Positions 578-46,545 of a stretch of DNA of 64,000 nucleotides are shown here, in pieces (within the stretch, counting starts at the first letter, position 1; every line of letters starts with the position of its first letter). A program made the position numbers and the translations under genes. A model generated the notes under the pieces. It was not told where the DNA came from and did no database searches. It saw only the letters and a list, made by a program, of their open reading frames with translations. Source of the DNA: Escherichia coli (GTDB taxonomy: Bacteria; Pseudomonadota; Gammaproteobacteria; Enterobacterales; Enterobacteriaceae); NCBI RefSeq assembly GCF_003018235.1, contig NZ_CP027437.1; one strand, 5' to 3'.

Positions 578-1159
<582 letters not shown>

Positions 1160-1165
1160 TGATTT

Positions 1166-1198
1166 CTCGCGCGGGCAATCTTGCCCGCGCTTCTGCTC
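1166..1198 (+). terminator. Possible ppiA terminator hairpin
   Basis: GC stem gcgcgggca/gcccgcgc just after ppiA stop; weak T tract. Confidence 0.35.
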
Positions 1199-1263
1199 TC
1201 CCGGCGTAACCCGGATTTGCCGCTTATACTTGTGGCAAATGGACACGTTCAGGGAGGCATCAA

Positions 1264-1431: not shown

Positions 1432-2023
1432 ATTCGGCGAAGGGCGCGATCCGTATCTTTATCCTGGCCTTGATATCATGCGTAACCGGCTGAACATCCG
1501 CCAGCAACAGCGGCTGGAACAGGCCGCTTACGAAATGACGGCGCTGCGTGCTGCGACCATTGAGCTTGGTCCGCTGGTGCGCGGTTTACCGCATTTGCGC
1601 ACTATCCATCGCCAGCTGTATCAGGATATTTTCGACTGGGCGGGGCAATTGCGTGAAGTTGATATTTATCAGGGCGATACGCCGTTCTGCCACTTTGCCT
1701 ATATCGAAAAAGAGGGCAATGCCCTGATGCAGGATCTGGAGGAAGAAGGTTATCTGGTTGGCCTGGAGAAAGAGAAGTTCGTCGAGCGGCTGGCACATTA
1801 CTATTGTGAAATCAACGTGCTGCATCCCTTCCGTGTGGGAAGCGGACTGGCACAGCGGATCTTCTTCGAGCAGCTGGCGATTCATGCGGGCTACCAACTG
1901 AGCTGGCAGGGTATCGAAAAAGAGGCCTGGAATCAGGCAAATCAGAGTGGGGCAATGGGGGATCTCACCGCACTGCAGATGATATTTAGCAAAGTGGTAA
2001 GCGAAGCCGGGGAATCTGAGTAA
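1421..2023 (+). CDS. fic: Fic family protein
   Basis: 200-aa ORF with Fic-like motif [12 protein letters not shown] at residues 135-146. Confidence 0.9.
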
Positions 2024-11728: not shown

Positions 11729-12283
11729 ATGATGTCTCAGCCAGCGAAAGTTTTGCTGCTGTATGCCCATCCGGAATCTCAGGACTCGGTGGCAAACCGG
11801 GTACTGCTTAAACCGGCCACGCAGCTCAGCAATGTTACCGTGCACGACCTTTACGCGCACTATCCCGATTTTTTTATTGATATCCCCCGTGAGCAGGCAT
11901 TACTGCGCGAGCACGAGGTGATTGTCTTTCAGCATCCTCTTTATACCTATAGCTGCCCGGCGCTACTGAAAGAGTGGCTGGACCGGGTATTAAGCCGTGG
12001 TTTTGCCAGCGGGCCGGGAGGAAACCAACTGGCGGGAAAGTACTGGCGTAGCGTGATTACCACCGGCGAGCCGGAAAGTGCTTACCGTTATGACGCCTTG
12101 AATCGCTACCCGATGAGCGATGTTCTGCGCCCCTTTGAACTGGCGGCGGGCATGTGCCGGATGCATTGGTTGAGTCCCATCATTATTTACTGGGCGAGAC
12201 GGCAAAGCGCACAGGAGCTGGCGAGTCACGCCAGAGCCTACGGTGACTGGCTGGCAAATCCGCTGTCTCCAGGAGGCCGCTGA
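11729..12283 (+). CDS. kefG: Glutathione-regulated K+ efflux system ancillary protein KefG
   Basis: 184-aa ORF; stop overlaps the kefB start. Confidence 0.9.
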
Positions 12284-14088
12284 TGGAAGGTTCCGATTTT
12301 TTACTCGCAGGAGTGTTGTTTCTCTTCGCGGCGGTGGCTGCGGTGCCGCTGGCATCGCGGCTGGGTATTGGCGCTGTGTTGGGATATTTGCTGGCAGGGA
12401 TTGCAATTGGCCCGTGGGGGCTGGGTTTTATTAGCGACGTCGATGAGATCCTCCACTTTTCGGAACTCGGCGTGGTGTTCCTGATGTTTATCATCGGCCT
12501 GGAGTTGAATCCCTCCAAGCTTTGGCAATTGCGGCGTTCGATTTTTGGCGTAGGTGCGGCACAGGTGCTGTTAAGCGCGGCGTTGCTGGCGGGATTATTG
12601 ATGCTGACGGATTTCGCCTGGCAGGCGGCGGTGGTCGGTGGTATTGGCCTTGCGATGTCCTCAACCGCAATGGCGTTGCAACTGATGCGTGAGAAAGGGA
12701 TGAATCGCAGCGAATCCGGCCAGTTAGGTTTCTCGGTACTGCTGTTTCAGGATCTGGCGGTGATCCCGGCACTGGCGTTAGTGCCGTTGTTGGCGGGGGC
12801 GGCAGACGAACATTTCGACTGGATGAAAATCGGCATGAAGGTGCTGGCGTTTGTCGGCATGCTGATTGGCGGGCGTTATTTACTGCGTCCGGTATTCCGT
12901 TTTATTGCAGCTTCTGGTGTGCGGGAAGTGTTCACCGCCGCGACGCTGCTGCTGGTGTTGGGTTCCGCATTGTTTATGGATGCGCTGGGGCTGTCGATGG
13001 CGCTCGGTACGTTTATTGCGGGCGTGTTGCTGGCAGAAAGCGAATATCGCCACGAACTGGAAACAGCTATCGACCCGTTTAAGGGGTTGCTGCTCGGGCT
13101 ATTTTTTATCTCGGTCGGAATGTCGCTCAACCTCGGTGTGCTTTATACCCATCTGTTGTGGGTGGTGTTAAGCGTTATTGTGTTGGTGGCGGTGAAAATT
13201 CTCGTGCTGTATCTGCTGGCGCGACTGTATGGCGTGCGTAGCTCAGAGCGGATGCAGTTTGCTGGCGTGTTGAGTCAGGGCGGTGAGTTTGCCTTTGTGC
13301 TCTTTTCTACCGCTTCTTCACAACGCTTATTCCAGGGTGACCAGATGGCGCTGTTGCTGGTGACGGTGACGCTTTCCATGATGACCACGCCGCTGCTGAT
13401 GAAGCTGGTGGATAAATGGCTATCCCGCCAGTTTAACGGACCGGAAGAAGAAGACGAAAAACCGTGGGTCAACGATGATAAACCCCAGGTCATTGTCGTG
13501 GGCTTTGGGCGTTTTGGTCAGGTGATTGGTCGTTTGCTGATGGCAAATAAAATGCGCATTACTGTGCTGGAGCGGGATATCAGTGCCGTTAACCTGATGC
13601 GTAAATATGGCTACAAAGTTTATTACGGCGACGCCACGCAGGTCGATCTTTTACGTTCTGCGGGAGCAGAGGCCGCTGAGTCTATCGTCATTACCTGTAA
13701 CGAGCCGGAAGACACCATGAAGCTGGTGGAAATATGCCAGCAGCACTTTCCGCATTTGCATATTCTTGCGCGAGCGCGCGGACGTGTGGAAGCGCATGAG
13801 TTATTACAGGCAGGGGTGACGCAGTTTTCCCGTGAAACATTCTCCAGTGCGTTAGAGCTGGGGCGCAAGACGCTGGTCACGCTTGGCATGCATCCGCATC
13901 AGGCACAGCGGGCGCAACTGCATTTTCGTCGCCTGGATATGCGGATGCTGCGAGAGCTCATCCCAATGCATGCCGATACCGTACAAATTTCTCGCGCCAG
14001 GGAAGCCCGACGCGAACTGGAAGAGATTTTCCAGCGTGAAATGCAACAAGAACGACGCCAGCTGGACGGCTGGGATGAATTTGAGTAG
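12283..14088 (+). CDS. kefB: Glutathione-regulated K+/H+ antiporter KefB
   Basis: 601-aa ORF with multi-TM antiporter region and C-terminal KTN/NAD-binding domain ([11 protein letters not shown]). Confidence 0.95.
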
Positions 14089-14097
14089 AGGGTAAAG

Positions 14098-14298
14098 ATG
14101 GCAATCCGAAAACGTTTTATTGCGGGCGCAAAATGCCCGGCCTGTCAGGCGCAGGATTCAATGGCGATGTGGCGCGAAAATAATATTGATATTGTTGAAT
14201 GTGTTAAGTGCGGACATCAGATGCGAGAAGCGGACAAAGAAGCCCGCGATCACGTTCGCAAAGATGAGCAAGTGATCGGGATTTTTCATCCGGACTAG
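14098..14298 (+). CDS. yheV: Zinc-ribbon small protein YheV
   Basis: 66-aa ORF with CPAC...CVKCGH. Confidence 0.8.
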   Translation: MAIRKRFIAGAKCPACQAQDSMAMWRENNIDIVECVKCGHQMREADKEARDHVRKDEQVIGIFHPD

Positions 14299-14392
14299 CG
14301 ATATGCGCCGAGTTTTTTTAAGCTAGTGAGTACACGGCTGCAGAATTCCGCTACAATCTGCGCCACTATTCTTCCCATGCTCAGGAGATATC

Positions 14393-14983
14393 ATGAAAGT
14401 AGCAAAAGACCTGGTGGTCAGCCTGGCCTATCAGGTACGTACAGAAGACGGTGTGTTGGTTGATGAGTCTCCGGTGAGTGCGCCGCTGGACTACCTGCAT
14501 GGTCACGGTTCCCTGATCTCTGGCCTGGAAACGGCGCTGGAAGGTCACGAAGTTGGCGACAAATTTGATGTCGCTGTTGGCGCGAACGACGCTTACGGTC
14601 AGTACGACGAAAACCTGGTGCAACGCGTTCCTAAAGACGTATTTATGGGCGTTGATGAACTGCAGGTAGGTATGCGTTTCCTGGCTGAAACTGACCAGGG
14701 TCCGGTACCGGTTGAAATCACTGCGGTTGAAGACGATCACGTCGTGGTTGATGGTAACCACATGCTGGCCGGTCAGAATCTGAAATTCAACGTTGAAGTT
14801 GTGGCGATTCGCGAAGCGACTGAAGAAGAACTGGCTCATGGCCACGTTCACGGTGCGCACGATCATCACCACGATCACGACCACGACGGTTGCTGCGGTG
14901 GTCATGGCCACGATCACGGTCATGAACACGGTGGCGAAGGCTGCTGCGGCGGTAAAGGTAACGGCGGTTGCGGTTGCCACTAA
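14393..14983 (+). CDS. slyD: FKBP-type peptidyl-prolyl isomerase / metallochaperone SlyD
   Basis: 196-aa ORF with His/Cys/Gly-rich C-terminal tail. Confidence 0.95.
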   Translation: MKVAKDLVVSLAYQVRTEDGVLVDESPVSAPLDYLHGHGSLISGLETALEGHEVGDKFDVAVGANDAYGQYDENLVQRVPKDVFMGVDELQVGMRFLAETDQGPVPVEITAVEDDHVVVDGNHMLAGQNLKFNVEVVAIREATEEELAHGHVHGAHDHHHDHDHDGCCGGHGHDHGHEHGGEGCCGGKGNGGCGCH

Positions 14984-14998
14984 TACCGAAAAAGTGAC

Positions 14999-15027
14999 AA
15001 AAAAGCGGGGGAATCCCCGCTTTTTTT
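14999..15027. terminator. Bidirectional rho-independent terminator between convergent slyD and slyX
   Basis: Hairpin agcgggg-gaat-ccccgct flanked by A tract upstream and T tract downstream. Confidence 0.7.
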
Positions 15028-15032
15028 ACGCC

Positions 15033-15251
15033 TCAATAATGTGGCGGTGGCGTTTCTTCAGCCTGCGACGCGATGTTCGACGGCTGGCTGGCTTTTAGCT
15101 TCTCGGTCAGCAGACGCAGATGATCGCGCAGTTTCGCCATCTCCATTTCATGAGCGGTCACCGTGACGTTCAGTTCTTCAATGGTGATTTCCTGAAAAGC
15201 CAGTCGGCTCTCCAGCTCTGCCAGGCGTGCTTCCAATGATAAATCCTGCAT
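15033..15251 (-). CDS. slyX: SlyX protein
   Basis: 72-aa coiled-coil ORF. Confidence 0.85.
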
Positions 15252-15471: not shown

Positions 15472-16284
15472 ATGAAATCACTGTTTAAAGTAACGCTGCT
15501 GGCGACCACAATGGCCGTTGCCCTGCATGCACCGATCACTTTTGCTGCTGAAGCTGCAAAACCTGCTACAACTGCTGACAGCAAAGCAGCGTTCAAAAAT
15601 GACGATCAGAAATCAGCTTATGCACTGGGTGCTTCGCTGGGTCGTTACATGGAAAACTCTCTTAAAGAACAAGAAAAACTGGGCATCAAACTGGATAAAG
15701 ATCAGCTGATCGCTGGTGTTCAGGATGCATTTGCTGATAAGAGCAAACTCTCCGACCAAGAGATCGAACAGACACTGCAAGCATTCGAAGCTCGCGTGAA
15801 GTCTTCTGCTCAGGCGAAGATGGAAAAAGACGCGGCAGATAACGAAGCGAAAGGTAAAGAGTACCGCGAGAAATTTGCCAAAGAGAAAGGTGTGAAAACC
15901 TCTTCAACTGGTCTGGTTTATCAGGTAGTCGAAGCCGGTAAAGGCGAAGCACCGAAAGACAGCGATACTGTTGTCGTGAACTACAAAGGTACGCTGATCG
16001 ACGGTAAAGAGTTCGACAACTCTTACACCCGTGGTGAACCGCTCTCTTTCCGTCTGGACGGTGTTATTCCGGGGTGGACAGAAGGTCTGAAGAACATCAA
16101 GAAAGGCGGTAAGATCAAACTGGTTATTCCACCAGAACTGGCTTACGGCAAAGCGGGTGTTCCGGGGATCCCACCGAATTCTACCCTGGTGTTTGACGTA
16201 GAGCTGCTGGATGTGAAACCAGCGCCGAAGGCTGATGCAAAGCCGGAAGCTGATGCGAAAGCCGCAGATTCTGCTAAAAAATAA
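15472..16284 (+). CDS. fkpA: Periplasmic FKBP-type peptidyl-prolyl isomerase FkpA
   Basis: 270-aa ORF with signal peptide and FKBP domain. Confidence 0.95.
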   Translation: MKSLFKVTLLATTMAVALHAPITFAAEAAKPATTADSKAAFKNDDQKSAYALGASLGRYMENSLKEQEKLGIKLDKDQLIAGVQDAFADKSKLSDQEIEQTLQAFEARVKSSAQAKMEKDAADNEAKGKEYREKFAKEKGVKTSSTGLVYQVVEAGKGEAPKDSDTVVVNYKGTLIDGKEFDNSYTRGEPLSFRLDGVIPGWTEGLKNIKKGGKIKLVIPPELAYGKAGVPGIPPNSTLVFDVELLDVKPAPKADAKPEADAKAADSAKK

Positions 16285-19280: not shown

Positions 19281-19364
19281 TCCCTTCGGAGTTTTAGTCA
19301 CCAGGCGGGCGCTTCCAGTAAGCAGCCCGCTTTGGGCTACTTAAATTGAACGCCTAAAAGATAA

Positions 19365-21491
<2,127 letters not shown>

Positions 21492-21504
21492 GCCTAAGGG
21501 TTAA

Positions 21505-22746
<1,242 letters not shown>

Positions 22747-41920: not shown

Positions 41921-44316
<2,396 letters not shown>

Positions 44317-44329
44317 TTTTAGAGGATAA

Positions 44330-44611
<282 letters not shown>

Positions 44612-44616
44612 GGTAG

Positions 44617-46545
<1,929 letters not shown>

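Follow-up and report, generated by a model that had tools for sequence, protein, structure and literature searches.

Positions 14393-14983 of the window, by which we mean the whole 64,000-nucleotide stretch of Escherichia coli DNA that was analysed, are an ordinary and well-studied E. coli slyD, and the gene represents biology that is already known. Two long open reading frames that overlap it, one on the opposite strand and one in the +1 frame, are almost certainly non-genic shadow ORFs that owe their openness to the composition of the SlyD tail and to codon bias. They are judged to be non-genic because they have no family match and no Shine-Dalgarno or promoter-like site, because changes in the antisense frame are non-synonymous and because the 3′ end of the +1 ORF is variable.

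The slyD gene and its nickel-binding tail

The gene and its neighbours are arranged in the window as follows.

12283-14088, plus strand: kefB
14098-14298, plus strand: yheV
14383-14387, plus strand: Shine-Dalgarno-like AGGAG, 5 bases upstream of the slyD ATG, read from the sequence
14393-14983, plus strand: slyD coding sequence, 196 codons plus TAA
14393-14836, plus strand: folded part of SlyD, residues 1-148 (FKBP prolyl-isomerase domain and inserted chaperone domain), from alignment to solved chains
14837-14980, plus strand: C-terminal metal-binding tail, residues 149-196, from composition and conserved motifs
14999-15026, both strands: bidirectional intrinsic terminator between slyD and slyX, from a terminator scan
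15033-15251, minus strand: slyX, convergent to slyD (Pfam SlyX, 5.2e-23; annotated as slyX in E. coli records)
15472-16284, plus strand: fkpA

The product is identical at 196 of 196 residues to the solved E. coli SlyD (PDB 2KFW, chain 2KFW_A) and scores 426.8 bits against the NCBIfam equivalog PRK10737 (cut-off 174), with residues 1-196 lying on model positions 1-196, which bears out the naming of the gene as slyD in the preliminary description of this DNA. Two more solved chains align to residues 1-166 (2K8I, chain 2K8I_A) and 1-154 (8G01). Pfam FKBP_C (PF00254) is found at 35.6 bits (cut-off 21.1), and this match is limited to residues 4-78 because an inserted domain splits the FKBP fold. 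The codon-model score of the folded part is 0.67 bits/codon and that of the gene is 0.56 bits/codon (0.54 in a second scoring), which places slyD with the highly expressed set.

The slyD DNA is single-copy and annotated as slyD in 5425 of the 5426 complete E. coli genomes, with a best identity of 99.8%. Identity to K-12 is 98.3%; relative to that locus the window carries 10 synonymous substitutions, which leave the protein unchanged, and one extra G in the stem of the downstream terminator. The identical protein (WP_000861334.1) occurs in five E. coli lineages that differ at 9-15 of the 591 slyD sites (1.5-2.5%). The order kefB-yheV-slyD-slyX-fkpA is shared by the window, the E. coli records, Salmonella, Citrobacter, Klebsiella, Serratia, Yersinia and Photorhabdus. 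Thus the window matches E. coli SlyD (UniProt SLYD_ECOLI; PDB 2KFW, 2K8I) in protein, genomic context, tail composition and motifs.

Bases 14843-14980 correspond to slyD codons 151-196 and encode the peptide HVHGAHDHHHDHDHDGCCGGHGHDHGHEHGGEGCCGGKGNGGCGCH; the version of this peptide quoted earlier was exact save for its first two residues, HV, which had been omitted. The 46-residue stretch contains 15 Gly, 14 His, 6 Cys, 5 Asp and 2 Glu, and the full tail of 48 residues (149-196), which begins with HGHXH, contains 15 His, 6 Cys, 16 Gly, 5 Asp and 2 Glu. Only 12 distinct codons are used in 14843-14980, the commonest being CAC (11), GGT (10), TGC (6) and GGC (5), and the amino-acid entropy of 2.46 bits is below that of all 12,322 other 46-residue segments of the genes here, whose minimum is 2.99. 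This composition, together with the known nickel-binding tail of the protein, confirms that the stretch is the metal-binding tail of slyD. The motifs HGHVHG, GCCGG (one or more copies) and, at the end, GGCGCH are conserved across Enterobacterales.

SlyD, an FKBP prolyl isomerase and chaperone built of two domains, has an unstructured C-terminal tail that can bind as many as seven Ni(II) ions at sub-micromolar affinity, and this tail, which stimulates nickel release from HypB, is needed for maturation of [NiFe]-hydrogenase (PMC7055735). A protein cut at residue 155 binds one nickel through His149, His151 and His153 and does not activate hydrogenase (PMC7055735). Judging from this literature on the identical protein, the His/Cys/Asp/Gly-rich tail encoded in the window would be intrinsically disordered and would deliver nickel to [NiFe]-hydrogenases through HypB. 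SlyD is also regarded as a host contaminant in nickel-affinity purification of His-tagged proteins by IMAC (e.g. PMC13397214). Low-complexity, disordered, metal-binding regions rich in His, and sometimes in Cys, are likewise found in Helicobacter pylori SlyD, in Hpn, in the His-stretches of HypB and in the UreE tail of Klebsiella aerogenes, and these too are carried by nickel-enzyme maturation factors (PMC7055735). The enterobacterial SlyD tail is not homologous to those tails, however, and has a conserved frame of its own, HGHVHG...GCCGG...GGCGCH.

Downstream of the gene, the terminator hairpin at 14999-15026 has a predicted folding energy of -21.0 kcal/mol on the plus strand (z = -4.75) and -20.2 kcal/mol on the minus strand (z = -3.58), and since it is preceded by an A run and followed by a T run it would be usable on both strands. 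A full-length match to the Salmonella sRNA STnc40 (Rfam RF02057) at 14963-15027, which spans the last 18 bases of slyD plus the terminator, scored 34.5 bits, below the gathering score of 45. No STnc40 match with E <= 0.1 was found in the slyD loci of Salmonella, Citrobacter, Klebsiella, Serratia or K-12; the candidate was rejected for lack of a counterpart at the orthologous loci of Salmonella and K-12, and the match is best read as a generic similarity between terminator hairpins.

Frames open opposite and alongside slyD

Both overlapping ORFs exist at the positions and lengths originally given for them.

14381-14980, minus strand: antisense shadow ORF of 600 bases and 199 aa, in phase with the slyD codons and spanning the whole gene
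14793-15098, plus strand: +1 shadow ORF of 101 aa, extending past the slyD stop and across the terminator into the 3′ end of slyX

Within the tail (14843-14980), three of the five alternative frames lack stop codons. As only 46 of 1244 control segments of 46 codons from the other genes of the window (3.7%) have at least three open alternative frames, this is more than expected by chance. The second base is a purine in 44 of the 46 tail codons. A stop in the +1 frame requires T at the second position of a sense codon, which explains why there is none in the tail; a stop in one further antisense frame requires T or C at that position, and an in-phase antisense stop requires a sense TTA, CTA or TCA codon. 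Codons with a purine in second position (His CAY, Asp GAY, Gly GGN, Cys TGY and Glu GAR) would thus keep the +1 frame and two antisense frames free of stops. When the tail was recoded synonymously, 5000 times under each of three codon usages, the +1, -0 and -2 frames were stop-free in 100% of recodings and the remaining two alternative frames almost never were. Therefore it is the peptide sequence that forces these frames open, and not the particular DNA or its repetitiveness. The preliminary description had held that the repetitive cac/gat/ggt DNA yields the stop-free frames; the frames are indeed open in the tail, but the cause is amino-acid composition rather than repetition.

The tail can explain the openness of just 138 bases out of the 600 in the antisense ORF, and to this extent the original attribution of the ORF to the tail is correct; the rest follows from the absence of TTA, CTA and TCA codons and from codon bias. 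The antisense frame is open across all 196 slyD codons because slyD contains none of these three codons, its 14 Leu codons comprising 13 CTG and one TTG and its five Ser codons including no TCA. The gene is also poor in Leu and Ser residues, and its codon usage is biased like that of highly expressed genes. We computed the probability that the antisense frame is fully open, given the SlyD protein sequence, under four codon usages.

Usage of the window's ribosomal-protein and elongation-factor genes: 0.45
Usage of all other genes of the window: 0.09
Usage of the window's remaining genes outside the ribosomal-protein/elongation-factor block: 0.05
Uniform synonymous usage: 0.001

The in-phase antisense frame is fully open in 13 of the 56 genes of the window, all of which have high codon scores and which include tufA, rpsJ, rplW, rplB and rpsC, among others. 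The open antisense ORF is a general codon-bias effect; that genes with biased codon usage have shadow ORFs opposite them is textbook knowledge. Those lying antisense to other highly expressed, codon-biased bacterial genes are likewise in phase, with TTA, CTA and TCA avoided and high codon scores; the slyD example differs in that its last quarter is also kept open by amino-acid composition, whatever codons are used.

Codon-usage scoring had been put forward as a check on the overlapping frames. Over the whole gene it tells the frames apart, but in the tail it is weak and puts the wrong frames ahead, as the following scores (bits/codon) illustrate.

Whole gene: sense 0.54, in-phase antisense 0.20, +1 frame -0.47
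Tail only: sense 0.10, in-phase antisense 0.47, +1 frame 0.21

The order inverts in the tail, where CAC, GGT, GGC and GAT have the common codons GTG, ACC, GCC and ATC as their reverse complements. At 0.20 the antisense frame outscores every other in-phase antisense frame in the window's genes, and this value falls in the top 2% of SlyD recodings under high-expression usage. Since the score of an in-phase antisense frame is set wholly by the sense codon counts, it provides no independent evidence.

Comparison of slyD alleles gave the following numbers of changed codons, as synonymous/non-synonymous, in the two frames.

Window against K-12: slyD 10/0, antisense 0/10
Window against E. coli TA8571: slyD 15/0, antisense 0/15
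Window against Salmonella: slyD 47/6, antisense 1/52

This pattern, the decisive test of the overlapping frame, indicates that selection acts on the slyD frame only. Identity between the window and Salmonella is 96.9% for SlyD and 73.5% for the antisense product; in Yersinia the antisense frame is interrupted by a single stop, in Photorhabdus by four.

These observations bear on whether the ORF at 14381-14980 might be a real gene that overlaps slyD and is translated via an antisense transcript, a possibility we regard as extremely unlikely. The positive codon-model score, both overall and in the tail, is in its favour, as are the deposition of relatives of its product as hypothetical proteins in 76 clusters and the full-length openness of the frame in five enterobacterial genera (E. 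coli, Salmonella, Citrobacter, Klebsiella and Serratia). Long antisense ORFs on highly expressed genes have moreover been claimed before, such as pop in E. coli O157:H7, a 603-bp ORF antisense to ompA (PMC7103648) that is similar in length to the 600 bp here and likewise fully embedded opposite the gene for an abundant protein. The O157:H7 claims rest on RNA-seq, ribosome profiling and phenotypes, whereas the evidence on the slyD antisense ORF comes from sequence, and the substitution pattern points to no constraint on its frame. Against a genuine gene stand the almost exclusively non-synonymous changes in this frame, the low identity to Salmonella relative to SlyD, an identity of only 89% even between two Salmonella alleles of the product and the stops in Yersinia and Photorhabdus, together with an openness that codon bias makes probable (P = 0.45) and that is common to 13 of the 56 genes.

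Expression signals point the same way. The ORF begins with GTG directly after the slyX terminator, the upstream sequence being CTTTTTCGGTATTA; neither overlapping ORF is preceded by a Shine-Dalgarno sequence comparable to the AGGAG of slyD, and a consensus scan of the minus strand from 15033 to 14381 found no promoter-like site. Neither the antisense nor the +1 product has a Pfam or NCBIfam match above cut-off, and neither ORF is annotated in the RefSeq E. coli records inspected. No report of translation of either was found in the literature searched, nor was a paper found that pairs 'slyD' with 'retapamulin'. A preprint on antisense genes across the E. coli genome does not list the antisense ORF among the candidates in its supplements, where the terms 'slyD' and 'b3349' are both absent. 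A peptidyl-prolyl isomerase entry in those supplements was considered and set aside, as it is a 621-base gene beside cysQ, probably fklB and not slyD.

Openness of the antisense frame in five genera, taken alone, could pass for conservation.

A variant of the overlapping-gene reading is that transcripts reading through from slyX allow low-level translation of the ORF, or part of it, yielding a hydrophobic product rich in Val, Thr, Phe and Ala that has a lineage-specific role in Escherichia, Salmonella and Klebsiella. We give this combined proposal hardly any credence; if it were true, it would describe a young overlapping gene made possible by slyD codon bias and tail composition.

The +1 frame is stop-free over 312 bases in the window and 252 bases in most E. 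coli, a difference due to a one-base indel in the terminator stem, where the window has its extra G. The end of the +1 ORF consequently shifts by 60 bases between E. coli strains. Its start codon is TTG, and its codon score is 0.005 bits/codon for the ORF itself. Weak matches of its product to the TAF1C beta-propeller (Pfam) and to Ceg9 (NCBIfam) were discarded, being far below the cut-offs and reflecting low-complexity composition.

It has virtually no chance, in our estimation, of being a separate small protein or of supplying an alternative SlyD C-terminus through programmed frameshifting in the tail. Such a role could be argued from the stop-free run of 252-312 bases in E. coli and from database proteins that join a SlyD N-terminus to a C-terminus in the +1 frame (P0024, P0026, P0028, P0060, P0086 and P0120). 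However, nearly all of these fusion proteins come from a single contig each, and the only one examined at the DNA level (P0026, locus L010) results from a single-base deletion, CATGGCC to CATGCC, in an assembly that also has a truncated kefB. The frameshift points vary between entries and therefore do not indicate a fixed slippery site. The 3′ third of the ORF is not conserved among E. coli strains, the codon scores are low both for the ORF and across the slyD coding sequence, the TTG start is not preceded by a Shine-Dalgarno motif, and the exact product is absent from a collection of 15 billion proteins. The earlier description of the overlapping ORFs as spurious holds, given the substitution pattern and the stops in the antisense frame, the variable end of the +1 ORF and the lack of signals or family matches.

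Length variation of the tail

The DNA encoding the tail contains short, dispersed direct repeats and is weakly tandem-repetitive. The repeats relevant to length variation are listed below.

14858-14886, plus strand: weak tandem array with a 12-base period (TRF), ACCACGA recurring at 14868 and 14880
14869-14879, plus strand: copy 1 of the direct repeat CCACGATCACG
14908-14918, plus strand: copy 2 of the same repeat, 39 bases from copy 1
14966-14977, plus strand: tandem GGTTGC GGTTGC (Gly-Cys-Gly-Cys), from the sequence

TRF found no long perfect tandem tract in the tail, its best result being the 12-base period at 14858-14886 with 2.4 copies and 88% matches. Targeted searches over 5425 complete E. 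coli genomes, on which the counts of length variants are based, gave the following alleles.

15-base duplication at the array 14858-14886: 201 aa, one complete genome
12-base deletion at the array 14858-14886: 192 aa (WP_000861330.1), 11 records, five of them from one isolate
39-base deletion between the CCACGATCACG copies: 183 aa, one genome (LR536431)
6-base deletion at 14966-14977: 194 aa, no complete genome, present in draft assemblies

The 192-aa allele of NCTC9038 lacks HDHD at 14858-14886, the 39 bases deleted in LR536431 equal the spacing of the two CCACGATCACG copies, and the 6-base deletion allele, represented by database entry P0004, has one GC unit fewer. Each length variant preserves the reading frame and has short direct repeats at its borders, a pattern that would be expected for slippage at such repeats, which may occasionally produce in-frame deletions and duplications in the tail DNA.

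In-frame length variants account for about 13 of the 5425 complete E. coli genomes (0.24%), and 59 of 60 evenly sampled E. coli genomes share the same length, leaving aside the one-base terminator indel. Across genera the intact tail varies from 25 to 69 aa (median 48). The suggestion in the preliminary description that tail length is likely to be strain-variable thus applies between genera but hardly within E. coli. Tail length would appear to drift between genera, with length alleles rare within the species. Since the tail protein is identical in lineages that differ at 9-15 of the 591 sites, the tail is under purifying selection.

Could the repeat nevertheless be a contingency (hypermutable) locus that varies the nickel capacity of SlyD between strains? 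Four in-frame E. coli length variants (-39, -12, -6 and +15 bases), each at short direct repeats, and the range of 25-69 aa between genera are in keeping with this, and a review describes the tail as 'variable among SlyDs' (PMC7055735). The scarcity of carriers, five of which come from one isolate, the single length shared by 59 of 60 sampled genomes and the invariance of the tail protein across diverged lineages all argue against it, and the repeats, at 2.4 imperfect copies, are short and unlike true contingency tracts. A contingency locus is accordingly very unlikely, and slippage that only rarely leaves length alleles within E. coli is the reading we prefer.

Shadow ORFs in sequence databases

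An exact look-up of the antisense and +1 products in a collection of 15 billion proteins found neither, a search that is insensitive to start-codon choice: a homology search with the antisense product later gave 76 clusters. Nearly all of these are single-contig, and a precomputed Pfam domain is present in one only (P0193). Deposited copies of the antisense product include 'hypothetical protein SARI_04171' (Salmonella arizonae), ESA_04392 (Cronobacter sakazakii), DR74_1620 (Enterobacter cloacae) and a 'conserved exported hypothetical protein' (Klebsiella). When a Salmonella enterica slyD is translated in its in-phase antisense frame, the product is only 89% identical to SARI_04171.

The +1 product is present in the databases only where frameshifted slyD calls continue into this frame. 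Several proteins of 214-256 aa listed as 'SlyD' go on after the SlyD core with ...TITVMNTVAKAAVAVKATAVAVATNTEKVTKKRG..., the translation of the +1 ORF. In E. coli OY856303, deletion of a single G changes CATGGCC to CATGCC, and reading overshoots the normal stop by 52 bases, entering slyX; because kefB is shortened as well in this assembly, the frameshift suggests a sequencing error.

Research on SlyD and its nickel-binding tail goes back decades, and the analysis adds little new biology. Its significance lies in annotation hygiene. The antisense ORF has been deposited sporadically as a 'hypothetical' or 'conserved exported' protein, and single-base errors in the tail lead not to an early stop but to plausible 'SlyD' proteins of 214-256 aa. 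For low-complexity tails of this kind, comparative substitution patterns, and not codon statistics, are the right test.

Database products of the slyD shadow frames

The translation of the slyD tail in the +1 frame is found as the C-terminus of public proteins of 197-256 aa annotated as SlyD (P0024, P0026, P0028, P0060, P0086, P0088, P0120 and P0124). These entries are frameshifted calls, which read past the slyD stop codon and continue through the terminator because the +1 frame lacks stops. In the E. coli locus OY856303 (L010), the frameshifted slyD has lost one G, and in P0088 and P0124 the slyD frame is left and then re-entered.

Regions concerned
14793-15098 (+), window
601-1245, locus L010

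Public entries for the antisense shadow ORF of slyD also exist: it was deposited as a hypothetical protein in 76 clusters (P0135-P0210) from several enterobacterial genomes and metagenomes, with SARI_04171, ESA_04392, DR73_4149 and DR74_1620 as examples. Some of these entries are even labelled as a "conserved exported hypothetical protein" or "FliL".

The interval between slyD and slyX

The left arm of the bidirectional terminator stem (15007-15011) contains five G residues in the window compared with four in most E. coli, and the longer form (a span of 258 bases rather than 257) was present in 5 of 60 sampled genomes. As a result of this single-base indel, the stop-free stretch of the +1 shadow ORF grows from 252 to 312 bases. 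The end of slyD together with the terminator (14963-15027, plus strand) also gives a full-length, sub-threshold match to the Salmonella sRNA STnc40 in Rfam (34.5 bits against 45, E = 7e-4). Since this match was not reproduced at the orthologous Salmonella and K-12 loci, it probably reflects resemblance to a terminator only, and we rejected an sRNA at this position. Separately, Salmonella and Citrobacter carry an additional element of ~125 bases between slyD and slyX, which E. coli lacks. Its match to Rfam V_AS5 is full-length but weak (29-37 bits against 96), and its sequence presumably resembles the enterobacterial ERIC repeat.

Additional slyD-slyX element (~125 bases)
1794-1918 (-), Salmonella locus L003
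1800-1924 (-), Citrobacter locus L007

Unusual SlyD homologues and occurrence of slyD

In P0053 (272 aa, 7 members) and P0075 (288 aa, Pfam PF00254 and PF07683), the SlyD core is followed by a long His/Asp/Glu run and a CobW C-terminal domain. The ENA metagenome contigs that encode them are 8359 and 1311 bases long, and the two proteins may either result from chimeric assemblies joined via common CAC/GAT low-complexity DNA or represent a genuine fusion of two metallochaperone parts. In P0021 (196 aa), from a Logan assembly, Tyr replaces each of 11 His residues in the initial portion of the tail (CAC to TAC), a pattern more suggestive of converted reads or systematic C-to-T damage than of a natural allele. 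Of 5426 complete E. coli genomes, one lacked any match to slyD, while another had its match on a record labelled as a plasmid.

Antisense frames opposite other genes of the window

Very long antisense shadow ORFs, of up to 528 aa, also lie opposite ribosomal protein genes and ORFs 19377-21491 and 21517-22746, by position the putative fusA and tufA.

Long antisense shadow ORFs, among others
19341-20927 (-)
21331-22656 (-)
43423-44478 (-)
41942-42643 (-)
42579-43214 (-)
44970-45623 (-)

The in-phase antisense frame is completely open in 13 of the 56 genes in the window, all of which have high codon bias.
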